IMG/VR virus record: IMGVR_UViG_2711768057_000002
Direction: 5' to 3' (one strand)
DNA: 18,974 nucleotides
Source of the DNA: a virus
Taxonomy: Duplodnaviria > Heunggongvirae > Uroviricota > Caudoviricetes
The stretch's first letter is position 1, and each line of letters opens with the position of its first letter. The translations under genes and the position numbers were made by a program. Under the pieces are notes generated by a model, which had not been told where the DNA came from, searched no databases, and worked only from the letters and a program-made list of their open reading frames with translations. Below are positions 1,688-17,714 of this stretch, in pieces.

Positions 1688-1975
1688 TTACTGTCTCTGG
1701 CAATCTTTATAGCGATAACGCCTGAAGTACCCTCTCGCTTCCTCATCCATACCAAGAGCCGAATGAGTCCGCTTAACTGCCTGTCTTAAATCTCCGAATC
1801 TGTCTGTAGTTGCTGGTGGGCGTGCCGCCTTACGGATACATTCAGATCGTCTGTTTGCTGCATGTTCACGTTCTTTATCGCCATCTGCCAGCATCATGAC
1901 TTCTGCCCATCGTGCGGCAGCTCTCCGGTATAGCCCTTTTGACTCCAGCTCTTCAGCTTTCCTGTCCCTTATCAT
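1688..1975 (-). CDS. Small basic regulator, PerC-family-like (95 aa)
   Basis: N-terminus MIRDRKAEELESKGLYRRAAARWAEVM resembles the PerC-family pattern (AE-LE-KGL-RRAA-RW) from memory; SD GAGAGG 6 nt upstream of ATG; TATATAAT -10-like element about 20 nt further upstream. Confidence 0.6.
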   Translation of the reverse strand: MIRDRKAEELESKGLYRRAAARWAEVMMLADGDKEREHAANRRSECIRKAARPPATTDRFGDLRQAVKRTHSALGMDEEARGYFRRYRYKDCQRQ

Positions 1976-2234: not shown

Positions 2235-2675
2235 ATGGTCTTTGCAATGAGCAAATCTAATCTGATCGCGTTCCGCATCCCATCTGAATTGCAGGATGAG
2301 TTTAATCGGTCTGTTCTCGCTTCTGGAGGGGATAAAACCTCCTGGCTTGTTGATGCGATTCGCATGAAGCTGAGACAGACGGAAAAGTCTATTGATTTAC
2401 GAATGCTTGGGCTGGTGGAGCGCATGGAAAAAGCCGCAGCATCGCTTATTGCCGGAAAGCCGAACATCCCACCAAAGCCATATAACGAAACGGCAGTTAT
2501 AAAGATCATTGCCGATACCATCCGACAGGGATTTGATAATGGGCGTGTGATAGCTGAACGGCTCAATGAAGCAGGCTACCAAACAAAAGCTGGTAAAGCG
2601 TGGGATAAAGACATTTACAGCGCGTGGAAGCGTCAGGGTAACAATATTAAAAGAATCAATACGCTGCTTCAGTAA
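2235..2675 (+). CDS. Small DNA-binding regulator: RHH-like N-terminus plus recombinase-type HTH-like C-terminus (146 aa; start may be ATG at 2247)
   Basis: N-terminal LIAFRIPSELQDEFNRSV is a strand-helix pattern typical of ribbon-helix-helix proteins; C-terminal IAERLNEAGYQTKAGKAWDKDIYSAWKR resembles the DNA-binding 'recombinase' motif of serine-recombinase-type proteins; the overlapping antisense ORF 2162-2566 looks non-protein-like. Confidence 0.6.
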   Translation: MVFAMSKSNLIAFRIPSELQDEFNRSVLASGGDKTSWLVDAIRMKLRQTEKSIDLRMLGLVERMEKAAASLIAGKPNIPPKPYNETAVIKIIADTIRQGFDNGRVIAERLNEAGYQTKAGKAWDKDIYSAWKRQGNNIKRINTLLQ

Positions 2676-2704
2676 TTGATCAGTGTATAAATGATATTTA
2701 TCGC

Positions 2705-3682
2705 TCAATCGCTCCCTTTCCGCCCTTCAGCTACAGGGTCGTTGTCGGCGATAACAAAACCTAAGTCCTGAGAGAATCTCTCTCGTGGGAATCCTTTGGC
2801 AGGTAAACCCATTGAATCATATCCACATCCGGGAACATTTGGTTTAGAGTCAATAAGGTCTGCAATTTGCCGAAGCCATGTTGATCCCGGACCAAGTTGT
2901 TTAACTAAGTACCAGATAATACAGATCGCGCTAAAAATCCTCTCGCAACTCTCTGGATGGAGATTAAGTCCGTCAAAGTATTCATTATCCGGTACTGGAA
3001 CTCGGGGATGCTTTCTATTCCATATTCTGGAATGGTGAGCGCAACGATTCCTTATGAGATTAAGGCACTTCAACCATTTTGCAAATGTCTGCTTATTATC
3101 AATGCCAAAACGACGTATAATTTTCCCCTGCATATGACCATTAAGCATCGCATAATATTTAGACATCTGACCAAAATCCCAGGTCTCCACCGCCACCCAA
3201 AATGGAATCTCCTTGCCTTGGCTTCGATGCCATTCAATACAGTCATCTCTGCTTTCGTCTAATTTTACTTTTTGCTTATACACCCAATGCTCGAAGGCAG
3301 ATGAGAATTTTGGATTAATGTATTTTGATGACATGTAGGCAAGTGGATCATTGCGACCAACCTCATGCGCGATGACTGAACGAACATGAATCTCTATTCT
3401 TTCGATAGCATCAATCATCAAAAGACGCAGTTTTTTGTCAAAAAGATATAGATCGTACGTCTTCTCGAAACTGGTACCAGCAAGAAATCGGTCTGTTCTG
3501 TACGAAAGACCTTTATCTGTTGTCGCAATAATTCTTGATGGGTACCAAAAACCTGACAATCGATAATATCCAACCTGCGACAGCTTACGTATCGCACGAT
3601 TTCGATCATTGATAATCATGCCACGTTCAAGTAGCAATCCTAGCAATTCGTGATAGTCCTTATGAGGCTTTGCGGCAATCAT
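2705..3682 (-). CDS. Abi_2-family abortive infection protein (AbiD/AbiF-like), about 325 aa from ATG at 3682 (ORF track extends to a GTG at 3727)
   Basis: Hallmark Abi_2 motifs: N-terminal HELLGLLLERGMIINDRNRAIRKLSQVGYYRLSGFWYP, central LYLFDKKLRLLMIDAIERIEIHVRSVIAH, C-terminal LIRNRCAHHSRIWNRK; AT-rich relative to flanks. Confidence 0.8.
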   Translation of the reverse strand: MIAAKPHKDYHELLGLLLERGMIINDRNRAIRKLSQVGYYRLSGFWYPSRIIATTDKGLSYRTDRFLAGTSFEKTYDLYLFDKKLRLLMIDAIERIEIHVRSVIAHEVGRNDPLAYMSSKYINPKFSSAFEHWVYKQKVKLDESRDDCIEWHRSQGKEIPFWVAVETWDFGQMSKYYAMLNGHMQGKIIRRFGIDNKQTFAKWLKCLNLIRNRCAHHSRIWNRKHPRVPVPDNEYFDGLNLHPESCERIFSAICIIWYLVKQLGPGSTWLRQIADLIDSKPNVPGCGYDSMGLPAKGFPRERFSQDLGFVIADNDPVAEGRKGSD

Positions 3683-3852
3683 AGTGGCGAAACAAAAGAT
3701 AATAAAAGGCCCGACCGTGAAACTCACATGCCTGAAATCGGCGGCGGAGAAACAGAGGATCGGGCTCGGTTGCCCGTAACTCTATCCGAAGTTATCCACA
3801 TGTCAATGCACAGTTACTTAGGAAACTAACATAGATACTATCATCACTCACG

Positions 3853-4155: not shown

Positions 4156-4473
4156 TCACACCAGATACATGTGATTGGTGTACCCGCATAAAACATTGTC
4201 ATAGCGCGTCCTGTGCGCATATACGCCGATAATCAACACATCGCCACCACTCTGACTTATGTAGAGAACAGTTTTATGGTACTCCCCTCCATCGTGCGCG
4301 TACTTGTCTCGAAATTGGTGTTTTGCTGTGGCAGTGATATCAGAAAAATCTTCCTGTTTCACATAAAGCGGATATGCGCGTACTGTAACGGCCCCATCAA
4401 CTGGGAGCGGATTTGAAATCCCGACCCAAGCTATGTACCAAATGCCATGTCTTGGATATATGATGATTGCCAT
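4156..4473 (-). CDS. Hypothetical protein (start uncertain; ORF open to 4602)
   Basis: C-terminal about 80 aa have protein-like composition, but no SD precedes either candidate ATG and the 5' part overlaps the better-supported plus-strand membrane ORF. Confidence 0.25.
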   Translation of the reverse strand: MAIIIYPRHGIWYIAWVGISNPLPVDGAVTVRAYPLYVKQEDFSDITATAKHQFRDKYAHDGGEYHKTVLYISQSGGDVLIIGVYAHRTRYDNVLCGYTNHMYLV

Positions 4474-4501
4474 TCTAAACAAAGCTAAAGGGAGGGTTGG
4501 T

Positions 4502-4858
4502 GTGAGGGGGCAGGCAGTTATAATTATTTTGTTGGGTTTAATTGTCGCAAAGTTATACCCGACTTTATCGATGGTGTTTTTTGCCATTATTGGCGCAGCC
4601 ATCTTTACTTATATCATTAAACATACCGCCTTGTGGTTCTATAAAATTGATATAGTTCAGAAGTTTGTACGTCCTGTGTCGATGTTATTACTAGCATTAA
4701 TACCAATTGGTGTTGCTTATGTAATTGATGTTTTTTACCCTTCGGACACTGAAAGGTGGTTGATAGTTTTGTATTGTTATATTGGTGTAGCTCTCTTTTG
4801 TGGATTTCATTGGTGTTTCGAAAAGATCAATGACTCTATTTCAAAGAATAAAGATTGA
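4502..4858 (+). CDS. Small integral membrane protein, about 4 predicted TM helices (118 aa from GTG at 4502)
   Basis: Strong SD AAGGGAGGG (4489-4497) 5-6 nt before GTG; four hydrophobic stretches (AVIIILLGLIVAKL, MVFFAIIGAAIFTYII, VSMLLLALIPIGVAYVI, WLIVLYCYIGVALFCGF); long open frame in AT-rich DNA; convergent with the 705-aa gene; GGCCA-TCCG-TGGCC hairpin right after the stop. Confidence 0.5.
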   Translation: MRGQAVIIILLGLIVAKLYPTLSMVFFAIIGAAIFTYIIKHTALWFYKIDIVQKFVRPVSMLLLALIPIGVAYVIDVFYPSDTERWLIVLYCYIGVALFCGFHWCFEKINDSISKNKD

Positions 4859-4877
4859 GGCCATCCGTGGCCATTCA

Positions 4878-6995
4878 CTAGTCATTATCTGGATCATTAG
4901 ATAGCCAAGTAATGATGCCCAGTCTGGCGATGGTCCGTTTTTCCTGTTCAGGAAGAGAGTTAAAAAAACTCTTCCATTGAGGGGAGCGCCTGATACGTGA
5001 ATCAACAATGTGCCCAGGCGCTTTTCCGTGTAGATTTTTTACTGCGCTCTGGAAGGCTGGCGAGGCAATTAATTTATCCGCAGCATCAGCCGCCCCTGCT
5101 CCACCAGCTAATCGAGCTTTACTCGCCAATCTTGCTCCAATATCAGCCCCAGCAATGGCTCCAAGCGATCCAAAATGAGCGCCTACCATCGTGCCTATTT
5201 TTTGAATGTGTTTTGCTGCTAGTTCGTATGGAGCTGTTACCCGATTAAATCTGTTTACAAACTCATTCAGCTTACCAGTAGATATTTCATGCGCTTTAGC
5301 ATTTTTTATTGCTCTGGCAACTTTGTATACATCATATAGTCCGCTCATTGTTTCTTTTGGCAAATGTTCAGCCAAAGTCTTTAGCTGTCCACTGTGTTGC
5401 AAGTTTTGCCACCAATCTGCAAAGCCAGATGGATTAAAGTCGGCCCCACGCTTCCCAGAGGAAAGCATATCTCTTAATGCTGTTCCTACTAGCTCCCTTC
5501 GCAATGTTCTTGATGGAGTATTTTGCATAATCTCACGAAACCCTCTCGCATCACCTTTTGCCATAGATTGAAGAGAATTCGTTACTTTATACGCTATATC
5601 CCCATTAAGTGTTTTCCCGCGAAGATTTACCATTTGCCTTTCTAAGTTTTTTCTCATAGCTACAAGGCGTTGTGCGACTTCGAAATCTCGCAAGTATCCA
5701 GTATTGGATAAGACAGATTTTTGGTCTTCAGCTAAAGCTCCATATAGTCTTGATAGCGCTTCTTTATCAGCATCTTTGTATGGCCCCTGCTTTTTATTTA
5801 GGGCATCACCAACTAAACGCCTTTGCCTGTTTAAATTTGCATACGTTAGGATGCTATCTGGGCCGGGGTTTATTGCTGTAAAAACTCGCTTTTCTATTGG
5901 GTCAAGATTATCCCACCCTCCTAAATCATCAGCGATTTTTTCCAGCATAGTGCTTGTGTTATTTGCTTCGACTTTTGTTCTTGGTGATAGAGCGGAATCA
6001 ACACGTTTATATAACTGATCACTACGGTTTTTTAGTGCTTCCATTCTACTATTTATCTGATAAATATATTTTTCGCTCATAGCTAACGCATCTGGCGCAC
6101 CAGCAACATCATCGATTATCTTGCCAGCACTAGAGGCTAATTCGCTTATTGCTTTATCTTCTTGAGCTTTTAACGCTGATCCTGTCCGTGACTTTAGGGC
6201 TTGCTCTACAGCTTGGTATTGCTCATTTCCTGATAAATGAGAAGGAAGAACTGAATCAACATGAAGCCTATTTGCAGCCTCAACAATTTCTTTCTGAGGT
6301 TTTAGATCTAGCCCTTCAAGCGAAGAGGCAAGATTTGGGTTGCCTTGTGCAGATAACTTACGAATTTTCTCTTCGGCAGGAGTAATCCCCTCAATATCTG
6401 GAATCGAAGAAACATTCTTCTTGGTTAATTTCCCAGCTATTTTATTAATTGCAGGGCCAGCAAGTTCGGCTACAGGGCCAGCCACAGCGCCAATAGCAGC
6501 GCCGGAAGCAACATCGCTATTTGTTCCATTGGCTACAATAGCCCCTTCTCCAGCACCAAGCCCTGCGGCGGCAGCCAGTCTTGCCGCCCCTTTGGGAACC
6601 TGAGAAATAATCCCACCACCACTAACAAATGGCGCTGCTTGTCCAACGAACTCACCAACATCTTGTGCGGTTGATGGTTTTGCCGCTAACTTCTGCTGTA
6701 GAGACTGAATTGCGGCTTGCTCTTCTGGTGTCATATCCTGAAACAGGCCAACACCTTTACCAACATCCATCAATCCACTGAGAACGCCATACATAAAACG
6801 GTCGAAACCGTTAGCATTATTAACAACATTTTCCTGTCTGGAATTTTCCTCTGGTGAAACCAAAGGTGATTGCTGCTGTTCTGGTTGGGCATCAAGCACA
6901 AAACCATCAGGAAGCTGTGAACTATCAGGAAACTGTGAGTTATCAGGTTGTTCATCGAGCACAAAACCTTCCGGTAAGATTACATTTGCTGCCAT
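4878..6995 (-). CDS. Hypothetical 705-aa protein: acidic Pro-rich N-terminus with tandem repeat, Gly/Ala-rich hydrophobic segments
   Basis: Long ORF; its ATG overlaps the upstream gene's stop by 16 nt (translational coupling); no catalytic motif recognised. Confidence 0.8.
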   Translation of the reverse strand: MAANVILPEGFVLDEQPDNSQFPDSSQLPDGFVLDAQPEQQQSPLVSPEENSRQENVVNNANGFDRFMYGVLSGLMDVGKGVGLFQDMTPEEQAAIQSLQQKLAAKPSTAQDVGEFVGQAAPFVSGGGIISQVPKGAARLAAAAGLGAGEGAIVANGTNSDVASGAAIGAVAGPVAELAGPAINKIAGKLTKKNVSSIPDIEGITPAEEKIRKLSAQGNPNLASSLEGLDLKPQKEIVEAANRLHVDSVLPSHLSGNEQYQAVEQALKSRTGSALKAQEDKAISELASSAGKIIDDVAGAPDALAMSEKYIYQINSRMEALKNRSDQLYKRVDSALSPRTKVEANNTSTMLEKIADDLGGWDNLDPIEKRVFTAINPGPDSILTYANLNRQRRLVGDALNKKQGPYKDADKEALSRLYGALAEDQKSVLSNTGYLRDFEVAQRLVAMRKNLERQMVNLRGKTLNGDIAYKVTNSLQSMAKGDARGFREIMQNTPSRTLRRELVGTALRDMLSSGKRGADFNPSGFADWWQNLQHSGQLKTLAEHLPKETMSGLYDVYKVARAIKNAKAHEISTGKLNEFVNRFNRVTAPYELAAKHIQKIGTMVGAHFGSLGAIAGADIGARLASKARLAGGAGAADAADKLIASPAFQSAVKNLHGKAPGHIVDSRIRRSPQWKSFFNSLPEQEKRTIARLGIITWLSNDPDND

Positions 6996-8323
6996 TTTCC
7001 GTTCCTGTAAATGATTTTCTGACCAGTTTTAGGGTTGGTTGCCGTTGCGCCTTCTGATATTCCTCCGGTTGCCGCTTTTGCCTGTCCAGTGCCAGCCTGT
7101 GATGTAGGCTGCCCGGAAACATCGTCAAATAGCTTCGCTTTCCTTCTTTCAAGGCTTTTTCTTAGCCCCTGAGGAATAGTTTCTCCATATGTATCGAGAT
7201 ACTCGTCAACCTGCTGGTTAAACTGCTGCCCCATAGCATTGGCGTTGATTTTTGCGGCGTTAACAATGTTATCCTTTGCCTCCTGCGACAGGCCGTTTCC
7301 AGCATTAAGCTGGTCTATGTATCCTTTGATTTGTCCCCATATGCCATCAGACCGCATTACCTGAACCTGTTCGCCTTCACGAACGACTGACTGCGGGTCA
7401 AGAGATTTCATGTAGTTGAAGATAATCCCAAGTTGGGCAGCGCCAGTATTTACCTTGCTAAGGGCTTGCAGAGAGTTTGCCGCCGCTCTGACAGAGTTAT
7501 AATTTTTGCCAAAATTGGTAATGTCAGAATTTAATCCCTTAATTAAGTCTGCTGACGGCTTACCTTTTTGCCCCAGCTCCATTAGCTTCAATCCCATCTC
7601 ATCTGAGTGAATTTGTGCTCGCTGAGCCCTGTCTAGTTGAGCGTTCTGGATATTTGCCCATCCTCTCGCGTTCTCCATGTCAGCCTGACGCATACTTTCA
7701 TCCAGTCGCCCTTGCTCAAGTCGACGACCTTCCATTTGATCTTTGATATCGAAATACTTCTCATGACCGAGAGAAAACAGCGCCAGATTACCTGCGAAAT
7801 GCTGGAAGCCCTGCGGGTCATTAACCTGCATTTCAGCAATAGTTTCTGGAGGGATACCTAAACGACGCATCTCCTGCTCATTATCCATCATGAACCTGCC
7901 AAATGCGCCCTGACCAAGCGATGAGGCTACCTGTGCTTTGAGCGCCAGATTGCCATAATCATCCCTTTGAGCATCATCGACATAACTCATCCCTTTACGG
8001 ACTTCCTCAAACTCTTCTGGGAATGCTGTAATAAGATTACGCATCTGCTCCCTGTCACCGGACGCATAAGCATCTGCATAACCTTTCTGGAATGCCGCTT
8101 TACGCTCCTGCTGTTGCTGCTGCTTATAAATATCAGCAACTCCAGCCAGACCTCGAAGACCTGTCAGACCAACGTTATTTGCACCTGAGCGAGCCAGTTC
8201 ATTGTTTTCGCGGATCAGACCAAGCGTTGCGTTAATGTCGCTTGCCTTTGGCGCATTCTCATTTTGCGCACCAATGCCAGCCAGAAAACCACCAGAATTA
8301 ATACCCTGTTTCCACGTAGCCAT
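6980..8323 (-). CDS. Hypothetical 447-aa protein, Gln/Asn/Ala-rich, probably largely helical (start ATG 8323; track shows GTG 8335)
   Basis: ATG at 8323 lies 4 nt after the stop of the 57-aa ORF (TAAATCAATG); MATWKQGINSGG N-terminus; no Walker or nuclease motifs seen. Confidence 0.8.
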   Translation of the reverse strand: MATWKQGINSGGFLAGIGAQNENAPKASDINATLGLIRENNELARSGANNVGLTGLRGLAGVADIYKQQQQQERKAAFQKGYADAYASGDREQMRNLITAFPEEFEEVRKGMSYVDDAQRDDYGNLALKAQVASSLGQGAFGRFMMDNEQEMRRLGIPPETIAEMQVNDPQGFQHFAGNLALFSLGHEKYFDIKDQMEGRRLEQGRLDESMRQADMENARGWANIQNAQLDRAQRAQIHSDEMGLKLMELGQKGKPSADLIKGLNSDITNFGKNYNSVRAAANSLQALSKVNTGAAQLGIIFNYMKSLDPQSVVREGEQVQVMRSDGIWGQIKGYIDQLNAGNGLSQEAKDNIVNAAKINANAMGQQFNQQVDEYLDTYGETIPQGLRKSLERRKAKLFDDVSGQPTSQAGTGQAKAATGGISEGATATNPKTGQKIIYRNGKWQQM

Positions 8324-8327
8324 TGAT

Positions 8328-8501
8328 TTACCCACGTCCAGTTAAAGTGTAAGCCAGCGCCTTATCCATTAATCCCCGAGCAATTTCGTGGATCGTTGGC
8401 GCAACTCCTACCTCTGATTTTTTACGCTGCTCCTCCTGAATTTTCTTTATCGCTTCCATTTGCTTCTCACTTATCAATACCGGCTTTACTGAAATAGCCA
8501 T
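8328..8501 (-). CDS. Small 57-aa protein MAISVKPVLISEKQMEAIKKIQEEQRKKSEVGVAPTIHEIARGLMDKALAYTLTGRG (not in ORF track; below its size cut-off)
   Basis: Translated by hand from the minus strand; strong SD AAGGGGG 5 nt upstream of ATG 8501; stop TAA 8328-8330; strand-then-helices pattern compatible with a small RHH-like DNA-binding protein (inference). Confidence 0.5.
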   Translation of the reverse strand: MAISVKPVLISEKQMEAIKKIQEEQRKKSEVGVAPTIHEIARGLMDKALAYTLTGRG

Positions 8502-8516
8502 AACGCCCCCTTAGAA

Positions 8517-8563
8517 CTGTATAAAACAACAGTCATTATAGTTTCATAAAACGCAATATTCAT
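8517..8563 (-). promoter_or_regulatory. Candidate sigma70 promoter (-35 ATGAAT 8563-8558, 17-nt spacer, -10 TATAAT 8540-8535) overlapped at the transcription start by a LexA-box-like site CTGTATAAAACAACAG (8517-8532)
   Basis: Perfect TATAAT hexamer on the minus strand; CTGT-N8-ACAG with one perfect CTGTAT half-site, 3 nt downstream of the -10 and 16 nt upstream of the ATG at 8501. Confidence 0.4.
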
Positions 8564-8594
8564 CATTGTGATTGCAAAATATGAAACAAATAGC

Positions 8595-8629
8595 ACAAAA
8601 AAATGCCACCGCTCAGTAGCTGGTGGCAT
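8595..8629 (-). terminator. Rho-independent terminator (minus strand): ATGCCACC-11 nt loop-GGTGGCAT followed by TTTTTTTG
   Basis: Perfect 8-bp GC-rich stem (8603-8610 / 8622-8629) followed on the minus strand by a run of 7 T; separates the upstream genes from the SOS-box promoter. Confidence 0.6.
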
Positions 8630-8994
8630 CGTTCTGTATGTCAGGTTTTGACAGGTTTTTTATGGACTCTAAAAACTATATTTACGATGTCGCATTACTC
8701 TTCACGGCAGGCGCTTTCCAGTTCTGCCCTTGCTTCTGGCTCCATTGGTAATTTGATTCGCGATCAGCTATGCGGATGGTTTGCTGAACAGGCATAACAA
8801 CATCTCAGAGGCTATTTTTTGAACTACGAAAATTTCGTAGGTCTCTCCTTCAAAAACGTCACGCCCTTGTACACTGGATTTTACAAAAGTCTCGTAAAAC
8901 TCTTTGCTGTTCTGGGCTATGTGCCAAACCGCAGCGAATACCTCCGTCTGCCAGATGAGCAAAACATACCTTATAAAGAAAATCGCTGTTTTTG

Positions 8995-9098
8995 CTGTAC
9001 CACCTGTACCACCATGTCACAAACCCTTGTGTGACGCGGCCTGCAGGTGGTACAGGTGGGTAAAAATGACCTCTCCCCACCTGTACAGACCTGTACCA
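8995..9098. repeat. Iteron cluster A: TGTACCACC x2 direct (8996-9013), inverted copy GGTGGTACAGGTGG (9047-9060), ACCTGTAC(C) x2 (9078-9097); internal palindrome GTCACA-N8-TGTGAC (9016-9035)
   Basis: Read directly from sequence; same core motif (ACCTGTACCACC / GGTGGTACAGGT) as cluster B about 1.1 kb away. Confidence 0.6.
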
Positions 9099-9103
9099 TT
9101 TAT

Positions 9104-9841
9104 TTAATTTTTACCCATAGCAGCACATAATCCCTTTTTTGAAATATTGAAAAATGCGTTCATTCTTCCCGCTGGCTTAACCTTGTAGCCGCTTGCCACC
9201 ATCGCCGCAATAAATGCTCCGTTGGGGATATAGTGCGGGTGATCACTGTGCTGGTGGTTTATCTGGTTATATCGCTCCACTTCATGCTTCAACGTGTCAG
9301 ATGTGGGGTTATCCTGCGGGAAGCTCTCAATCTGGGCATTACTCATCCCGTTGTCTCTGATCCATCTCAGGCAGCTTTTCGCCGATACGATAAATGACGG
9401 GTTATCAAGCGGGTTTTCCCAGTCCGCATTCCGGTTGTGGAGCGCCAGTCCGTCAAGGTTAAATTGTGGGTATTCAGCGGTAATTACTGTCACTGCGTGG
9501 CGGATTTCAGTCTCGTCACAACATGGCTCATCTCCCACACCAGCAGGGTAATAATCTGAACCACCGGGACTGATACAGCGTTTACCACTGAAAGGCCATT
9601 GCTTCGCCATTTCGGGTGTTGAGTGATTACCGTCGCTCCGTTCGCGCTGTGCCTCTGTCCACTGGCTGGCATATTCAGTAAATGAAACCCTTTGCCCCTG
9701 ACGCATCCAGTGCGCAATCATAATTAAAGTGCGTTCCAGACTTTGGATGTCGCCAGCATTCCCGCACTGTGTAGCGAAACTTTTTAATTCTTCGCGCTCC
9801 GTTCTGGTCATTCCCTGCGGTATGCAATAGTTATTGCTCAT
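9104..9841 (-). CDS. Hypothetical 245-aa protein
   Basis: SD GAGAGG 7 nt upstream of ATG 9841; start overlaps the upstream 76-aa ORF stop (translational coupling). Confidence 0.65.
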   Translation of the reverse strand: MSNNYCIPQGMTRTEREELKSFATQCGNAGDIQSLERTLIMIAHWMRQGQRVSFTEYASQWTEAQRERSDGNHSTPEMAKQWPFSGKRCISPGGSDYYPAGVGDEPCCDETEIRHAVTVITAEYPQFNLDGLALHNRNADWENPLDNPSFIVSAKSCLRWIRDNGMSNAQIESFPQDNPTSDTLKHEVERYNQINHQHSDHPHYIPNGAFIAAMVASGYKVKPAGRMNAFFNISKKGLCAAMGKN

Positions 9842-10237: not shown

Positions 10238-12589
10238 TTAAAAAACATCATAACCCCCCATACCGATCAGACGGGCAAACGCAGCCTGTAGAACTCCGAC
10301 CTCTGGTAGTTCGTAGAACACGCCATTCCCTCGGTCTGGTCTTCCATGCTTCACCAGCCCCATTTGTGCAAGTGATTTACCCAGTAGTGATCTGGCTGCT
10401 GGCTCTTTAAGCTTTTCCCCACGCTCAAGCGACCACGCTACAAATCGACTAACCATATCCTTTGCAAACAAACGGACTTCGCCATTAAACGGAGGTTCAT
10501 TGATTAGCTCGCCATAAAGAAACAATTCAACGCCAGACAGCCCCAGCAAGATTTCTTCACGTAAGGCATCGGTCTGTGGCGCTCGTTGAGGGTCAAAACC
10601 TGAGAGATCCACCCCTTTAAGATGCCAAAGCAACTTTGCGGCACCGCCATCATTAAGCCAACTGTACAGCCGATCAAAATACTCCCGACTCTGTGCTTTT
10701 TCAGGAGATGGCTCAAGCACGAGATAGCGACGCTCTCTTATCCCTGCCTGTAATACCTGTGTGCTGTTACTGGCAAATATCAACCGGGCAAAATTCGGCA
10801 TTGGTTCAGCATCAATTCCCTTGCGCTCAAGGTTAAACGTCGGTTCGCTAATAATCGCTTTAAGTCTGTCAGCTTCAGACGGCTTGTGGATCGTCACTTC
10901 GTCAGCAAATACCAGTAGCTTGTTAGCAAGTATTGAATTGAAGCGCCCTGAAATATGTCCCGCCCCGTTAATGTGGGCGGCGTACTGCCCCAGTATTTGC
11001 AGCAGCGGTTTAACCGTTGTGCCTTTCCCTGTGCCCGGGACAGATTTCATCACGATTGCCACGGACGGTTTTTCATCAGGCTTTTGGATAATGTGCGCCA
11101 TCCACTGGATAAGATATTGGTATGCCTCCTCATTACCGGCACAGACAACCTGCAACAGGTGATTAAGGTATACCGTGCAATCTCCTTCAATTGGTTCCAG
11201 TGCCAGCCCCTCATACAGATTAAAAACATCGTCAGGGCATTTGTCTGGTACTGGATAAAATCCTACGCCTCCTGGCTTGTAGTTCTTCCCACTCCATGAC
11301 AGCCACGCCGATCCCGCCAGCTTTCTGGCGACTCTCGGTTTATGATGAAAATAATGCTGAAATTGTGATAAATCCTCGAAAACGTGCGATACACCGCCGG
11401 TTTGAGAAGGCTTTAGCGACACCACCTTGTGTTTCCCGCCGATGGTGACATGCGTAAACGTCCGGTTGATTTCTTCGAGGACAGCAATTTCATCATCGCT
11501 TAACACCTCGCCAGAACTGATCTCATTCAGCGCCCCGACTGACTGTTTGTGATTTTTCACCTGCGCCCCTTTCCCCCGTGGCTGGTACATCGAATCTTTA
11601 AATGCTGCTGTGGCTGCCGCCAGCCCGTGTTGTTGGTGATAGTCGTTCCAGTCGGCTTTATAGTCAGTCGGTGGCAGAGACACCCAGCCAGCTACGGAAA
11701 TAGCGGCCCTCTCTGCGGCATCTTTCCCCGTGTTGATCCCTCCACTTTCTGAGTCTCCTTGCTGGTGATCGTTATCTGCGGCAATGATTATTTGTGCCTG
11801 CGGATATGTTCTGCGCATGACTTCCGCTACTGGCAACAGGTTGCCAGCGTCGATTGCTGCCACTGTCATTGCGTCAGGGCGAATTAAATGGCACGACAGG
11901 GCGGTAGCCACCCCCTCAGCAATTATGATGCTGTGAGGTCGTTTCTGTGCGTTTATGGCGTGATATGCCCCCCGCTTTGCCGAACCTGTCAGGAGTCTTT
12001 TTTCACCATGTGGGGTAATAGTCTGTGCTGCTGTGACTGCGCCGGATTTATCCACCAGCGCCAGCAACAGAGATCCATCGGGCAACACGGGGAATGTAAA
12101 ATCACCTACCCCTTTCGCAACCAGATAATCAGATTTGCCGTTTACAGCCTTTCTGCGCATGTCATCAAACTGACGGGAAAACGTATCCCGTCTTTGTTGT
12201 TCGTCCTTCTCTGCCCTTTTCAGGCGCTCCTGTTCGCGTCGCTGGCGCTCGGTTTCCAGTTGTTCCCGTTTCTGGCTGGTGGCTTCTGGTGTTTCCGTTG
12301 TCCGGTAATCAATACCCAGAACATCAGCGGCAAGAAGCGCCGCCTCTGTTGTGTCGCAGTTATTTACGCGTTTAATTAAATCCAGCCCATCACCAGCGCC
12401 GCACTGATTACAGATGAAGCTACCGCGCCCGTTGTCATCGAACCGGAATCGATCTTTGCCCCCACATGCAGGGCAGGGAGCATGACGGCGCGGAGAGTCA
12501 GGGACATTTATGTTCAGGCAGCCCAGCACATGAGGCCAGTTGTTTTCAGACGCACTGATAACCTGACGGATAAGATCAATGTTTCGCAT
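10238..12589 (-). CDS. P4-alpha-like primase-helicase (zinc-finger/Toprim primase domain plus P4-family NTPase domain), 783 aa
   Basis: N-terminal Cys motif CPACGGKDRFRF...FICNQCG; Toprim-like IIIAEGVATALS and AADNDH; Walker A MKSVPGTGKGTT and Walker B LLVFADEV; size close to P4 alpha (777 aa); SD GGGGG upstream of ATG. Confidence 0.92.
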   Translation of the reverse strand: MRNIDLIRQVISASENNWPHVLGCLNINVPDSPRRHAPCPACGGKDRFRFDDNGRGSFICNQCGAGDGLDLIKRVNNCDTTEAALLAADVLGIDYRTTETPEATSQKREQLETERQRREQERLKRAEKDEQQRRDTFSRQFDDMRRKAVNGKSDYLVAKGVGDFTFPVLPDGSLLLALVDKSGAVTAAQTITPHGEKRLLTGSAKRGAYHAINAQKRPHSIIIAEGVATALSCHLIRPDAMTVAAIDAGNLLPVAEVMRRTYPQAQIIIAADNDHQQGDSESGGINTGKDAAERAAISVAGWVSLPPTDYKADWNDYHQQHGLAAATAAFKDSMYQPRGKGAQVKNHKQSVGALNEISSGEVLSDDEIAVLEEINRTFTHVTIGGKHKVVSLKPSQTGGVSHVFEDLSQFQHYFHHKPRVARKLAGSAWLSWSGKNYKPGGVGFYPVPDKCPDDVFNLYEGLALEPIEGDCTVYLNHLLQVVCAGNEEAYQYLIQWMAHIIQKPDEKPSVAIVMKSVPGTGKGTTVKPLLQILGQYAAHINGAGHISGRFNSILANKLLVFADEVTIHKPSEADRLKAIISEPTFNLERKGIDAEPMPNFARLIFASNSTQVLQAGIRERRYLVLEPSPEKAQSREYFDRLYSWLNDGGAAKLLWHLKGVDLSGFDPQRAPQTDALREEILLGLSGVELFLYGELINEPPFNGEVRLFAKDMVSRFVAWSLERGEKLKEPAARSLLGKSLAQMGLVKHGRPDRGNGVFYELPEVGVLQAAFARLIGMGGYDVF

Positions 12590-12601
12590 TCTGGCCCCCG
12601 T

Positions 12602-13204
12602 TTAGTGCGTCACTGGTGCTTCTGGGATGCCGTTTTCGTTTAGTTCGGCAATAAAGCTGTTGTGAAGATCGGCAAGCACTTCTCGCCCAAACGAAGTGAG
12701 TGTTCCCTGTTCGACATCGAACATGTTGCTGTAAAAAATGATGGCATTCTTTGTTCCGACATCAACACCATATTTCTCGATCATTGCGCCCTCAATGTTG
12801 TTTGCCATAGCGAGGCGCTCTGCTACTGGATACAGCGGCATGGCGACGATGCCATTGGAATAAACAGAAACCACGGAATGATTGCCACTGTCATCAATAA
12901 TGCTGACGGTGCCGTTTTCCTTTCTCATTTCATTGATGAATGCTGTTGCTATCAGCCAGCGCCACATAATCACGTGATGCTGTGATGTGTAATCGAAATA
13001 TCCCTGGTTGCCGCCACTGGCAATAGCGAGATGTATAAACATGCCTTCATCTGGTTTATCGTCATAATCCCCGGCATCCAGACGATTTACGGCATCAATA
13101 TATGAGACGGTCTCAACGCGTTCTGTCATGCCATCGTTGCTGCGGTGCATGATGTTTACGCCGTCAGGCGTTGCTTCTGCATGGAAAGTTAAGAAATTAT
13201 TCAT
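12602..13204 (-). CDS. Hypothetical 200-aa protein immediately upstream of the primase (start ATG 13204; track extends to 13309)
   Basis: ATG 13204 preceded by SD GAGG 7 nt upstream and located 2 nt after the stop of the upstream ORF (ATGAATAA overlap). Confidence 0.65.
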   Translation of the reverse strand: MNNFLTFHAEATPDGVNIMHRSNDGMTERVETVSYIDAVNRLDAGDYDDKPDEGMFIHLAIASGGNQGYFDYTSQHHVIMWRWLIATAFINEMRKENGTVSIIDDSGNHSVVSVYSNGIVAMPLYPVAERLAMANNIEGAMIEKYGVDVGTKNAIIFYSNMFDVEQGTLTSFGREVLADLHNSFIAELNENGIPEAPVTH

Positions 13205-13418
13205 GTTTCGCCTCGCCTGAATGATTCTGTAACTCATATTTGCCCAACAATTCGTCTGCTTCCTGAATAGCTTCTGGTACGCCATTGAGCAGTGACATAA
13301 CCGCGCCAATCATTAACTTGTCTCTGTTGCTGGGGCTGGCCCCTTCAAGCCAGAACCCTAAAACAGTCTGAACCTGTTCGATGCGACATTGCGCTTCAAT
13401 GAGCTGGATGTTGGTCAT
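13197..13418 (-). CDS. Hypothetical 73-aa protein
   Basis: SD GGAGAG 7 nt upstream; ATGA start/stop overlap with the upstream ORF. Confidence 0.55.
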   Translation of the reverse strand: MTNIQLIEAQCRIEQVQTVLGFWLEGASPSNRDKLMIGAVMSLLNGVPEAIQEADELLGKYELQNHSGEAKHE

Positions 13419-13678
13419 TTCGCACTCTCCACATCGATTAAACCGATATCTATCAGGGAGGTAACTTTTTGTAGCCAGCTATTGATTACTGTCGCCTGTT
13501 CCCCTCCCACCGAGGGAACAATCTCATTCATCACATGAACCAGACCTGTGCGCGCTCTGGTAAGCCGTTCAGTCGCGCAATCTGCGGGAGTGAATGTGTC
13601 TGGATATGGCTCTTCGCGCCCCAGCAATGATTCAATTTCCAGCTCACACGGATGACGATAAATTAAGTTGATATTCAT
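13415..13678 (-). CDS. Hypothetical 87-aa protein
   Basis: SD GGGGGTG 5 nt upstream; ATGA overlap with the upstream ORF. Confidence 0.55.
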   Translation of the reverse strand: MNINLIYRHPCELEIESLLGREEPYPDTFTPADCATERLTRARTGLVHVMNEIVPSVGGEQATVINSWLQKVTSLIDIGLIDVESAK

Positions 13679-13869
13679 TTTTCACCCCCAAGAATTACCA
13701 GCTCGGCACGGGCATCGTTAACCAAAGATGAGCACGCTTTAATCGCATCCACGACATCAGCAGCGTCCATTTCTTCAGCCGAAAGACTGACAGCAATCAG
13801 GACAGCCGCTGCTTGCTCGATTAATTGAAGTGCGGACGTAAGGCGAGGGGTATTAATTGAGTTATTCAT
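13675..13869 (-). CDS. Hypothetical 64-aa protein
   Basis: SD GGGGG 6-7 nt upstream; start overlaps the stop of the 342-aa ORF (ATGAATAA). Confidence 0.55.
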   Translation of the reverse strand: MNNSINTPRLTSALQLIEQAAAVLIAVSLSAEEMDAADVVDAIKACSSLVNDARAELVILGGEK

Positions 13870-14890
13870 TGGTTGCCCCCGTTTTTACTGGCATTTCGCC
13901 ACCTTCCAGCAGGAAATGAACGTCACGAACGGCGAGATCCAATATCGCGAGTAACGCCTTCAGTCTTTCGTCTCGTGAGGGAGAGTTGCTCACCAGAATG
14001 TCGTTAATCACTTCTGTCAGTGTGATGATCTGGCTTGTGCGTTCGAGGGGATCCATATGCACATCGTAGGTTTTAATCATGTGCCACCTCCATGCGGATA
14101 CGACCAGCAAAAAAGCAGACGTGATCGCGCACCAGAGAACGGCGAGCATCGCGTTCAGACTCGGCAGCAATATGATGAATTTTGGCGGTAATTGTCGGGC
14201 AATCGCGGCGAACTGCGGCGATAATCCAGATAAATTGCGGTTTTTGGGTAGGGGTAGTAGCCAGCATGTGGCAGCCTCCTTGATTGATGGTTTATAGCCA
14301 CCGCCCAAGAGACCAATCTTGCTGGCGGTGGACTGTACGGAGTTGGCCTTACTGGCAATCAAGGAAACCAGCCTACCCGAAGGTAGCCCCATACAGCCCA
14401 CCATTGATAAGGTGTGCGTGTGCGCCGATACAAAAAAAGACGCTGGCGCGTCATGTATCGCCTCGATTGTCAGCGGGAGGCCAATCCCGGCACCCGTTTT
14501 ATGAGGTGCCTTATAACCATAAACCGTGTTGCCGCATAACGGCAAGCTCTTTTTTATGGACTCCGAAAACTCACTATTGGAAGCACCAGATGCACAATAC
14601 ATCGCGCTCATTTCGTTAACGTCACGCGCATGGACGAAGGTTTTTGTGGAGTCACTACACGAGCGGAAGACATCATCTACGACCAGAAATTTTCTGGCGC
14701 AGCCGCTGACCTTCTCAATGCTAATATCATCGCCCGAGATTTCTGGTATGGTTAAGGCATCCGTTCCGACCACCAGCAAATGATAAACTTTGCTTGTATC
14801 TGCTGTATTAATGCCTGACTTTGCCGTCATATTGCTGGATTTTGGCGACATACCAGCCAGTGAAAATGTCTTCTTCTGGACGGGTATCAT
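13862..14890 (-). CDS. Hypothetical ORF (342 aa as drawn; possibly composite, see findings)
   Basis: Start at 14890 well supported (SD GGAGG 7 nt upstream, ATGA overlap with upstream gene); the central part has odd composition and an in-frame ATG at 14080 has its own strong SD GGAGGTG. Confidence 0.45.
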
Positions 14891-16336: not shown

Positions 16337-16539
16337 CAGGCCACCTTCCCGCGGCGTTCTGCTAGCCAGTTGTGAATCTCAACCGCATCAAACGCAGTTA
16401 TTTTTTCTCCCAGCTTTACCGGACGTGGTAGTGAACCGTTTCTTACTTTACGGTCGATGGTGGATACACTAACGCCCAGCAATTCAGCCAGGCGGAAGCG
16501 TCTGATATAGCCTTTTGTAGGAATAGTGTCGGTGTTCAT
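16336..16539 (-). CDS. alpA: AlpA-family phage regulatory protein / excisionase-like HTH protein (67 aa)
   Basis: RFRLAELLGVSVSTIDRKVRNGSLPRPVKLGEKITAFDAVEIHNWL matches the AlpA/Vis-type HTH family pattern. Confidence 0.85.
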   Translation of the reverse strand: MNTDTIPTKGYIRRFRLAELLGVSVSTIDRKVRNGSLPRPVKLGEKITAFDAVEIHNWLAERRGKVA

Positions 16540-16540
16540 G

Positions 16541-16588
16541 CTTCCCGTAACCTCTTAGCGATAGTTGTTGCTTCGTTACGGGAGGAAG
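16541..16588. promoter_or_regulatory. Imperfect inverted repeat CTTCCCGTAAC (16541-16551) / GTTACGGGAGGAAG (16575-16588) in the alpA leader
   Basis: Arms flank a 23-nt loop; the left arm ends 2 nt upstream of the alpA ATG, so in mRNA the SD region could be sequestered; alternatively a DNA operator. Confidence 0.35.
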
Positions 16589-16606
16589 TATCTGTACATA
16601 TATGGA

Positions 16607-16638
16607 CAATAAAAAGGCACAGTAATGATACTGTGCCT
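16607..16638 (-). terminator. Rho-independent terminator (minus strand) after the 321-aa gene: AGGCACAGTA-ATGA-TACTGTGCCT followed by TTTTTATT
   Basis: Perfect 10-bp stem, 4-nt loop, then T-tract on the minus strand; 16 nt downstream of the stop at 16654. Confidence 0.65.
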
Positions 16639-16653
16639 GAATAGTTAGCTACT

Positions 16654-17619
16654 CTACCCCTTACCGTTGGCGGCAGCACGTAAGTGTCTCAAAATCACAT
16701 CTTCATTTGTGATTGCTAACGGTGGAATTTCGTCTTTATGAGCCACTATGCAATCCCGCCACTTCTCAGGGCTTATTTCTTTCTTTTTGCCACGGCATTC
16801 ATCAGGATACTTTGACAAAAGATATATTGCTGATTTGAAAAGTTTTTCCCTGTTTTCAGCATGTCTCTCGGCATTATGGTTGCTATTTTTTATTTCAGGT
16901 ATTAGTTCCTGTTCTACCGCCATTTCGTATCGTTTTTTGCTCTTAGCTGCGTCAAAACTTCCATTAACCTTTGCGTCGTGAAGATATTCTAAATCAGCCT
17001 TTGTTATATAAATGTTTTTATCTGACAGGCTACTCAGGTGAATCTGGGAACTTTGCATTTTGAATTTATATAGATCACAATCAAATGTTGCTTCAAGTCG
17101 CACATATGGCTCTCCACATTCTTGTGAATGATAATGTCGTGTTGTACTACCGCGTACACGCAACAATCCGCATGCAATTGATTTTCTTACAATAAAAGAG
17201 TTTTTGCCAATTTGTTCAAAAACATTTTTATTGTCTCTGTCTTCAACTGTCAGTGGTTTATGTGCATAAAATAGCTCATAAGCACCGCTTTCAGATGCTG
17301 GGATATAAACTTCGTTGCTTGCGCTGGTAATAAGAAAAGGAAATGTAAACCTTACTTCTTCTGGGTACATAAGTAATAAATCAGTTATAAAATCAGCATC
17401 TTTTTTGAAGTGGATGGCGGCATCAGCTTCAATGAAATCAAGAAAGTCAGCATAGACATAAAAGTCTATATGTAGTCTATCTTTCCAATGCCATATATCA
17501 TCAATTTCACAATTTAATAATTTTGATGCTCGCTCTATCGTGCAGTAGTCCAAAGGTGGAATACCTGATTCCTGCCATAAATTTCTATGCACCGCAGTTG
17601 TTTCATGAGAGTCGTTCAT
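16654..17619 (-). CDS. Hypothetical 321-aa protein, AT-rich gene between int and alpA
   Basis: SD AAGGTG 7 nt upstream of ATG 17619; own terminator; markedly AT-rich versus neighbours; no family recognised. Confidence 0.7.
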   Translation of the reverse strand: MNDSHETTAVHRNLWQESGIPPLDYCTIERASKLLNCEIDDIWHWKDRLHIDFYVYADFLDFIEADAAIHFKKDADFITDLLLMYPEEVRFTFPFLITSASNEVYIPASESGAYELFYAHKPLTVEDRDNKNVFEQIGKNSFIVRKSIACGLLRVRGSTTRHYHSQECGEPYVRLEATFDCDLYKFKMQSSQIHLSSLSDKNIYITKADLEYLHDAKVNGSFDAAKSKKRYEMAVEQELIPEIKNSNHNAERHAENREKLFKSAIYLLSKYPDECRGKKKEISPEKWRDCIVAHKDEIPPLAITNEDVILRHLRAAANGKG

Positions 17620-17714
17620 TGCGTCACCTTTTACGCTGCGCCTTATTTTGTGATTGAGCCAGGCGGTAAGGCTTCCCGCTTTTCGCCCCGTCGAGCTAGG
17701 CTCAATCTATTCAG

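Follow-up and report, generated by a model that had tools for sequence, protein, structure and literature searches.

Within the 18,974-nucleotide stretch of viral DNA IMGVR_UViG_2711768057_000002 (hereafter the window), a minus-strand gene at positions 4,878–6,995 encodes a 705-residue protein that is, judged by its sequence, a DNA-ejection (E) protein of the P22 gp16 type. Comparisons with complete genomes and known elements show that this gp16 and a matched gp20 partner reside in a satellite of Escherichia coli, a phage-inducible chromosomal island (PICI) resembling EcCIMP1, and not in a phage. The best overall explanation, to which we assign a probability of roughly 0.7, is that the pair is co-packaged into helper capsids and serves the injection of island DNA; the role in the satellite is the part that we infer.

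Identification of the 705-residue protein as a gp16-type ejection protein

In PHROGs profile searches, the 705-residue protein matches phrog_6704 over its full length (E-value 1.4e-174) and phrog_770, annotated as 'DNA transfer protein', over residues 113–654 (1.2e-50). P22 gp16 matches phrog_770 at 2.3e-266. A profile built from the family of homologues aligns with residues 2–199 of P22 gp16 (1.9e-29; hhalign probability 99.2%). The open reading frame (ORF) begins with an ATG 16 nt before the stop codon of the upstream gp20-like gene. Relatives of the protein occupy the last position of the gp14–gp7–gp20–gp16 order in complete P22-like phages, and the nearest relative from outside the islands, with 79% identity, comes from such a phage. 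Homologues in Yersinia and Klebsiella records, which have the precomputed Pfam assignment PF26808 (Phage_P22_gp16), are located in ordinary P22-like prophages. The profile matches, the overlapping gp20 gene, and the shared position in P22-like phages therefore identify the protein as a gp16-type ejection protein.

A first-pass annotation, made from the sequence alone, had delimited the same ORF, which we find on the minus strand with its ATG start. It named membrane-inserting toxins, phage ejection proteins, and tape-measure proteins as candidate classes and held that none could be assigned from sequence. Only the second class is retained, on the grounds of the PHROG matches and the gp20 context, and the profiles, the overlapping gp20 gene, and the P22-like phage context suffice for an assignment to gp16. 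The profile comparison that the annotation had named as a check produced a match to the P22 gp16 family; the N-terminal repeats, however, are not a known linker.

The glycine-zipper stretches and the long helical body of the protein would also suit a membrane-inserting toxin or a tail tape-measure protein, and one homologue has a very weak, sub-threshold match to Tape_meas_lam_C (0.0098). Such a function is highly improbable. No toxin, tape-measure, or defence profile matches the protein, all its informative relatives are in the ejection slot of P22-like phages, whose short tails contain no tape measure, and P22 particles that delivered gp16 but no gp20 were reported not to be lethal to cells (bioRxiv 10.64898/2026.09.03.749273). 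The tape-measure candidate was rejected on the absence of Pfam, PHROG, and NCBIfam tape-measure matches and on the context of short-tailed phage ejection genes. A gp16 of the T7 type with a lytic transglycosylase was rejected as well, as the 705-residue protein has no Pfam match to an N-terminal SLT/lysozyme-like domain. Some homologues, for instance P0009, do have the SLT domain.

The protein is a mosaic of two phage types. Its N-terminal ~190 residues are 84% identical to gp16 of phage Kapi1, whereas residues 204–701 are 63% identical to gp16 of Sf101 and APC_JM3.2 and only 27% identical to that of Kapi1. The gp16 proteins of Kapi1, E212, and EC.P3 are full-length homologues with identities of 41–44%. 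A scan of species-representative genomes with the single protein as the query returned one locus. The protein adds a new mosaic allele to the highly mosaic gp16 family, and the kind of protein is itself known.

Glycine-rich segments and the helical core of gp16

The protein has weakly hydrophobic Gly/Ala segments near its N- and C-terminus, as has P22 gp16. Residues 111–200 contain 18% glycine and 22% alanine, and residues 596–640 contain 20% and 29%, respectively; GxxxGxxxG runs start at residues 165, 601, and 612. This composition bears out the two low-charge, glycine-zipper-like stretches described in the first-pass annotation. The first region was aligned to residues ~119–192 of P22 gp16 by a family profile that includes the region, and Gly151 is invariant across 60 homologues. 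The transmembrane prediction that the annotation had suggested was carried out with 19-residue Kyte–Doolittle windows, for which 1.6 is the usual value for a transmembrane helix. No window of the 705-residue protein reaches this value, the maximum being 1.37 in the island protein and 1.18 in P22 gp16. P22 gp16 has no strongly predicted transmembrane helix and can act in trans (bioRxiv 10.64898/2026.09.03.749273). The hydropathy profile of the island protein would be compatible with a membrane-active protein of this kind.

The glycines of the second stretch rank among the best-conserved positions of the family. Among the 60 homologues, Gly601 is kept in 58, Gly605 in 49, Gly609 in 59, Gly612 in 59, Gly616 in 50, Gly620 in 49, and Gly631 in all 60. 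When the last 170 residues of 16 gp16 types were aligned, Gly605 shared a column with Gly532 of P22 gp16, and the column is glycine in 15 of the 16 types. The substitution G532W is one of those in P22 gp16 that escape exclusion by SieA (PMC10461980). The second Gly/Ala stretch thus appears homologous to the P22 gp16 segment in which SieA-escape mutations occur, with the correspondence of Gly605 to Gly532 resting on the alignment.

The AlphaFold2 model, calculated from an alignment of 60 sequences, has an all-alpha core at residues ~230–700, with predicted local distance difference test (pLDDT) values mostly above 90 except in segments 511–520 and 571–620. The second dip is located within a predicted helix pair, 576–604 and 610–631, that carries the second Gly/Ala stretch. 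The first ~205 residues are of low confidence in the monomer model. The core is common to 1051 cluster representatives at 50% identity and is always C-terminal, behind variable N-terminal extensions. The only structures that match its fold are predicted ones of large podovirus proteins, among them several with N-terminal lysozyme-like or peptidase domains.

The N-terminal tandem motif module

The N-terminus has the sequence MAANVI-LPEGFVLD-EQ-PDNSQF-PDSSQ-LPDGFVLD, in which LPEGFVLD forms residues 7–14 (nt 6954–6977) and LPDGFVLD residues 28–35 (nt 6891–6914). In the DNA, the two motif copies correspond to a 32-nt direct repeat with 81% identity at 6880–6911 and 6943–6974, 63 nt apart. The first-pass annotation had noticed the tandem peptide repeat and reported a repeat of roughly 26 nt, with coordinates that are right within a few bases. 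Between the motif copies, at 6902–6947, is an 18-nt tandem duplication (2.6 copies, 85% matches) encoding PDNSQF/PDSSQL, which the Kapi1-type homologues do not have. Both LPxGFVLD copies are retained in homologues that are just 38–79% identical overall, with spacers of varying length. The retention of the motif pair despite this divergence indicates that it is kept by selection and is not a chance repeat.

The acidic, Pro/Gln-rich, and probably disordered character ascribed to the N-terminus in the first-pass annotation is reflected in residues 1–50, which contain no lysine or arginine, have a net charge of −10, and consist of 14% proline and 14% glutamine, and in pLDDT values below 50 at residues 1–65 and 105–204. 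At least six alternative N-terminal modules exist among gp16 proteins, the LPxGFVLD pair being one of them. The others begin with MKVTANGKTFTFPDGT, MAKAWKDVIASPQYQ, MAGPWEKYQ...GPWTKYQ, MDVLLPNGRT, MAYDREQLM, and MANFFDQFDE...NFFDQFDE, and in the GPWxKYQ and NFFDQFDE modules, too, a short aromatic-acidic motif occurs twice in tandem. Within the phage collection, LPxGFVLD was confined to gp16 N-termini of P22-like phages (EC.P3, E212, S.Kent 1-2-1, Kapi1, and SEN22). By these comparisons, the tandem motif is not a known linker and belongs to a set of interchangeable gp16 N-terminal modules.

The C-terminal half of gp20 is inherited together with gp16

The gene upstream of gp16 encodes a gp20-type ejection protein, the cognate partner of gp16. 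The Pfam family Inj_translocase ('DNA/protein translocase of phage P22 injectosome') was detected in this protein at 1.5e-73. The island gp20 is 75% identical to Kapi1 gp20 over the full length and 53% identical to residues 1–212 of P22 gp20. The gp20 and gp16 genes have the same orientation and overlap by 16 nt, as they do in Kapi1 and in many P22-like contigs of IMG/VR (the −16 class).

Among 72 distinct gp20/gp16 pairs, the C-terminal half of gp20 is co-inherited with gp16 (Spearman correlation 0.63–0.70), independently of the N-terminal half (0.17–0.32); the two halves of gp20 are separated by the main recombination break. In this set of pairs, the LPxGFVLD module is combined only with the Kapi1-type C-terminal half of gp20, which pairs also with gp16 of the MKVTANGKTF type. 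Leavitt et al. reported that P22 accepts foreign E proteins only when gp16 and gp20 come as a matched pair, while gp7 is freely exchangeable, and that E-protein alleles determine sensitivity to SieA (PMC10461980). An island that carries exactly gp20 and gp16, and exchanges exactly the C-terminal half of gp20 together with gp16, agrees with this rule.

The cassette is headed by a 57-residue ORF without a family match, preceded by a conserved non-coding leader. The tblastn matches of this ORF are confined to island loci, with none in phage loci, and it is conserved in EcCIMP1. The leader contains a hairpin followed by a T-run. Positions 8353–8903 of the window, comprising the 57-residue ORF and the leader, match EcCIMP1 with 93% identity over 551 nt, even though the genes on either side are different. 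The leader and the small ORF probably serve as the regulatory head of the cassette. No similarity to the late-promoter region, qut site, or terminator of P22 or Kapi1 is present in the conserved ~600 nt that precede the cassette, and a sigma-70 scan of the region performed no better than on shuffled sequence.

The pair resides in an EcCIMP1-like island

The window matches E. coli chromosomes in which an element of ~17 kb lies between dinD and yicC. The element has an integrase, Phage_AlpA, and a Toprim/DUF5906 primase, all co-oriented, and the size expected of a PICI, approximately 10–20 kb. It is 93% identical in nucleotide sequence to EcCIMP1 over 3.7 kb, in addition to the cassette leader. 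EcCIMP1 is a PICI that was excised, circularised, and transduced only with the P22-like helper Kapi1 (Pick, Stadel and Raivio, ISME J 2025, PMC11773190). Its authors described no phage-like structural genes, noted that ORFs 017–019 resemble 'DNA transfer proteins', and suggested a role for them in packaging (PMC11773190). In the island analysed here, gp20 and gp16 are the only virion genes. No homologue of gp7, gp14, coat protein, gp10, or tail proteins was found in the window, the neighbours of the pair are island genes, and the P22-like late operon context with gp14 and gp7 is absent. All listed island genes are on the minus strand except that for a 141-residue protein. The features are listed in Table 1.

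Table 1. Gene order of the island and coordinates of features in the window
Feature	Position	Strand	Evidence or detail
Island genes, first part: P4-type integrase, 321-aa ORF, AlpA, 143-aa ORF, AntA/B, DUF4222, Ash, small ORFs		-	Domain searches
Island genes, second part: primase-helicase (Zn-ribbon, Toprim, DUF5906), 76-aa ORF, 245-aa ORF, 600-nt gap, 57-aa ORF		-	
Island genes, third part: gp20 (-), gp16 (-), 141-aa gene (+), AbiD (-), PerC (-)			
PerC-family regulator	1688–1975	-	5.9e-33
141-aa protein with four predicted transmembrane segments	4433–4858	+	Four 19-residue Kyte–Doolittle windows of 1.9–2.3
gp16-type ejection (E) protein gene, 705 aa	4878–6995	-	ORF, ATG start; phrog_6704, phrog_770
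Predicted all-alpha core of gp16, residues 205–705	4881–6383	-	AlphaFold2 pLDDT, homologue clusters
Second Gly/Ala stretch of gp16, residues 600–624: G601xxxG605xxxG609 and G612xxxG616xxxG620	5124–5198	-	Conservation counts
First Gly/Ala-rich low-charge region of gp16, residues 113–184, GxxxGxxxG at 165	6444–6659	-	Composition, hydropathy, low pLDDT
Tandem motif module of gp16, residues 7–35: LPEGFVLD, PDNSQF/PDSSQL, LPDGFVLD	6891–6977	-	32-nt direct repeat and 18-nt tandem repeat
gp20-type ejection protein, 447 aa, cognate partner	6980–8323	-	RefSeq ATG start; mechanical ORF reaches GTG at 8335
57-aa ORF heading the cassette, MAISVKPVLISEKQMEAIKK...	8328–8501	-	RefSeq WP_001018522
Conserved non-coding region upstream of the cassette	8502–8903		Terminator-like hairpin, minus strand, 8605–8620
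pac-site-containing fragment of P22-type terS	14636–14742	+	92/107 nt identical to P22 coordinates 4–110

The AlpA–Ant–Ash–small ORF block accounts for the 93% identity to EcCIMP1. Both elements have the conserved cassette leader and small ORF, a PerC regulator, a pac-like terS fragment, and E-protein genes after the primase. EcCIMP1 is integrated at tRNA-Thr and the present island between dinD and yicC; the primase is of the DUF927 type in EcCIMP1 and of the DUF5906 type here. The cassette of EcCIMP1 comprises gp14, gp7, gp20, and a 906-residue gp16 with an SLT domain, whereas that of the island contains only gp20 and the 705-residue gp16.

The island pair is conserved, exchanged, and occasionally decayed

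The gp16 genes are intact in all five island copies compared. The ratio of nonsynonymous to synonymous substitution rates (dN/dS) is 0.19–0.23 for gp16 and 0.04–0.06 for gp20, in comparisons with the most diverged copy, L090, that are based on small counts. These values indicate that the gp20/gp16 pair is under purifying selection. Among 5426 complete E. coli genomes, 84 carry the pair over at least 80% of its length, with at least 98.7% identity in all sampled copies. The island-type head of the cassette, consisting of the leader, the 57-residue ORF, and the N-terminal domain of gp20, is present in 213 of the 5426 (~4%).

A sister island at the same locus in strain 19451123 is 98% identical from AlpA to approximately residue 203 of gp20. 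Beyond this residue, the remainder of gp20 and the whole of gp16 have given way to an unrelated allele of 488 residues together with a 701-residue gp16 of the MAKAWKD type. The replaced segment is 4505–7725 of the window against 11028–14000 of the 98%-identical sister L006, and its left junction is in the conserved N-terminal domain of gp20. The MAKAWKD-type allele occurs also on an EcCIMP1-type backbone (L017 and L020).

The cassette might alternatively be an inert remnant of a P22-like prophage, a segment of which recombined into the island and has persisted there without a function for it. The islands do recombine with P22-like phages, as evidenced by the mosaic junction inside gp20 and by positions 6475–7741 of the window, which share 89% DNA identity with Kapi1. 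There are also decayed copies: the L010 copy has a stop codon inside gp20, that of L007 has a truncated gp16 and a deleted primase, and three database fusions (P0003, P0004, and P0043) combine the C-terminal 46–59% of gp16 with either the Arm domain of an integrase or the N-terminus of gp20. The stop codon, deletions, and fusions imply that some island copies are decaying. Nevertheless, we regard it as quite unlikely that the cassette as a whole is inert. The 447- and 705-residue ORFs are intact in most copies with dN/dS values of 0.04–0.23, and the allele pair and the island-type head recur in the 84 and 213 genomes mentioned above. The cassette is always located behind the same 551-nt leader and 57-residue ORF, in two backbones, and its alleles are replaced as complete units, the C-terminal half of gp20 plus gp16, rather than eroded.

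A putative packaging signal in the island

The island contains a fragment of a P22-type terS gene that starts exactly at the first base of the annotated 22-bp pac site of P22. The pac sequences are GAAGGTTTTTGTGGAGTCACTA in the island, GAAGGTTTTTCTGACGTCACAT in phage E212, and GAAGATTTATCTGAAGTCGTTA in P22. The fragment is up to 92.5% identical to terS of the P22-like E. coli phages Bas106, Dewey, E212, EC.P3, and IME10, and is present in nine of nine islands checked, including EcCIMP1. It is likely, on these sequence comparisons, that the fragment is a packaging signal of the satellite. We found no mention of a pac-like terS fragment in EcCIMP1-like PICIs in the literature searched. The window showed no DNA similarity to the terS-containing part of the Kapi1 genome, and this may be the reason for the low transduction of EcCIMP1 by Kapi1.

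The fragment is overlapped by the 342-residue 'ash family' ORF (13862–14890, minus strand), in which the Pfam Ash domain covers only residues 124–219. The N-terminal extension of this ORF runs antisense through the terS/pac fragment, and the true ash start is probably further downstream.

Proposed role of the pair in the satellite

In P22-like podoviruses, as described in the literature, a few copies of gp16 are built into the procapsid and expelled through the tail upon infection. The proteins gp7*, gp20, and gp16 assemble sequentially into a ~50-nm channel across the envelope, in which a gp20 dodecamer spans the periplasm. The section crossing the cytoplasmic membrane consists of gp16 alone, for which the model has six copies docked onto the 'club foot' of gp20 at the distal end of the tube (bioRxiv 10.64898/2026.09.03.749273). 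By analogy, the island gp20/gp16 pair would be produced during the growth of a P22-like helper and co-packaged into procapsids built by the helper. Particles containing island DNA would then inject it through the island's own periplasmic and inner-membrane channel, and the Gly/Ala segments of gp16 could refold so that they become inserted in the membrane channel or line it. The N-terminal ~200 residues, which are disordered, may act like the N-terminal part of T7 gp16. The latter has an extended 'molecular tape' by which gp15, the protein of the periplasmic tube, is cemented (PMC8954989), and we take it as the model for the role proposed. The data allow such a tape or gp20-docking function for the N-terminal module, and a capsid-targeting signal is equally possible.

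Several observations weigh against the identification of the protein and its proposed role, in addition to the decayed copies described above. The link to P22 gp16 was detected at the profile level and leans partly on those members of the alignment that have the P22-like N-terminal module; the family hidden Markov model reached only the N-terminal ~200 residues of P22 gp16. BLASTP of the 705-residue protein against P22 gp16 was negative, with a best E-value of 0.49. Published gp16 types share just 22–26% identity (PMC10461980), and the missing pairwise similarity is therefore not disqualifying. Searches of Pfam, NCBIfam, and PADLOC returned no match to the protein, the Pfam library searched not containing PF26808; the precomputed PF26808 assignment is listed for many homologues and given as '-' for the protein's own cluster, P0001. 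A sequence search of the PDB and a Foldseek search against it gave no meaningful match to the core, which leaves the fold without a link to an ejectosome of solved structure. Among the 72 pairs, the association of the N-terminal module with the C-terminal half of gp20 (adjusted Rand index (ARI) 0.50, Spearman 0.70) is approximately that between the N- and C-terminus of gp16 (ARI 0.43, Spearman 0.66). Plain genetic linkage explains such an association, and specific coupling of the module to the C-terminal domain of gp20 by docking was rejected as its explanation. The proposal presumes that the island pair is expressed, packaged into virions, and ejected. EcCIMP1 left the titres of Kapi1 unchanged and was transferred at a low rate (PMC11773190), and therefore any role of the cassette in transfer is hypothetical.

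Going further, EcCIMP1-like PICIs may re-equip the DNA-delivery machinery of the virions they steal. A matched module, consisting of the C-terminal half of gp20, gp16, and a neighbour resembling a superinfection exclusion (Sie) protein, would be swapped among islands and P22-like phages; the satellite would thereby set the specificity of injection, and the terS/pac fragment would provide for packaging. A channel set by the satellite could, for example, be insensitive to Sie-type exclusion and admit the island into protected cells, including helper lysogens, which would be the recipients that the satellite most needs to enter. We put this extension forward tentatively and consider it doubtful. 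To our knowledge, there is at present no description of a satellite that encodes ejection proteins of its own for the re-equipping of injection.

The adjacent membrane protein and a possible anti-phage function

The gene for the 141-residue protein with four predicted transmembrane segments is convergent with the gp16 gene and located 19 nt beyond its stop codon. In P22, sieA directly follows gene 16 on the opposite strand, in the same position and orientation. A related ORF with four transmembrane segments is at this position in the phage loci L019 and L022, and the other phage loci contain different small membrane proteins or SieA. The 141-residue protein has no sequence similarity to SieA and no PADLOC match, and its match to Bax1-I is weak and sub-threshold. 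By analogy of position, it is a candidate exclusion protein of the Sie type.

The E-protein pair could instead act against phages, either because mismatched E proteins spoil the capsids of the helper or through superinfection exclusion together with the membrane protein at the sieA position. A mismatched gp16 or gp20 assembles into P22 particles and renders them non-infectious (PMC10461980), interference with the helper is common among satellites, and EcCIMP1 adds immunity to superinfection by Kapi1, with no known defence system found in EcCIMP1 (PMC11773190). However, the titres of Kapi1 after induction were not lowered by EcCIMP1 (PMC11773190), and the island has a matched pair and not a single mismatched gene. 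Furthermore, cytoplasmic proteins have no obvious route to a channel that is assembled by an incoming phage from the periplasmic side, and the membrane protein lacks SieA similarity and a PADLOC match, as noted above. An anti-phage function of the pair is thus unlikely, and co-packaging into helper capsids is the explanation that we prefer.

Comparison with known ejection proteins

The island protein (705 residues) and P22 gp16 (609 residues) are comparable in size, belong to the same PHROG family at the profile level, are encoded directly after gp20, have N-proximal Gly/Ala regions that align, share a glycine at the position of Gly532, and both lack, by hydropathy, a classical transmembrane helix. 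They differ in the N-terminal module, which is MKVTANGKTF... in P22 and tandem LPxGFVLD in the island protein, and in that the latter is encoded by a satellite without gp14 or gp7 and has no detectable pairwise similarity to P22 gp16. The gp16 proteins of Kapi1, E212, and EC.P3 are closer relatives, homologous over the full length, and Kapi1 shares both the tandem motif and the 16-nt overlap with gp20. In contrast to the Kapi1 and Sf101 types, the island protein is a mosaic of both and has the extra 18-nt spacer duplication; the N-terminus of the Sf101 type is different. T7 gp16 (internal virion protein D) is alike in its class of role, being the product of the last and largest gene of the ejection operon and reaching the inner membrane. 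Like T7 gp16, many proteins related to the core have an SLT domain at the N-terminus. The island protein, however, has no transglycosylase domain, is half the size, and has no sequence or fold match to the solved structures of T7 gp16.

Other variable and regulatory features of the island

Beside the cassette, at 2645–3753 of the window, is an AbiD-like gene (PADLOC AbiD, 5.7e-58). It shares no nucleotide similarity with the Abi gene that otherwise near-identical islands have in this position, and the protein of L021 is 50% identical. The position looks like a hotspot for the swapping of defence genes. A second variable slot, at 16526–17734, contains the 321-residue ORF that separates AlpA from the integrase and matches no family. 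In the sister islands, the sequence of this slot is unrelated and a 216-residue ORF is annotated instead. At ~8990–9105, read on the minus strand, several direct and inverted copies of a GGTACAGGTGG-like motif are located immediately behind the 245-residue ORF and ahead of the conserved cassette leader. These copies may be iterons of an island replication origin. The PerC gene of EcCIMP1 was reported to repress the virulence genes of the locus of enterocyte effacement (LEE) in Citrobacter rodentium (PMC11773190).

Implications for satellites and their helpers

The kind of protein encoded by the 705-residue ORF is known, and its satellite context is partly new and more important than the protein itself. 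The only paper on this island family left the packaging mechanism of EcCIMP1 open (PMC11773190). A common family of E. coli satellites carries complete, selected, and exchangeable gp20/gp16 pairs, and the conserved double glycine zipper of gp16 coincides with a SieA-escape position of P22. The literature searched contains no description of E-protein pairs as a selected and exchangeable module in a widespread family of PICIs. Should transducing particles make use of the pair, satellites would be able to change both the manner in which hijacked virions inject DNA and the recipients that they inject it into. This would bear on the horizontal transfer of PerC-type virulence regulators and Abi defences, on the arms race between gp16/gp20 and Sie proteins, and on the design of P22-like transducing particles.

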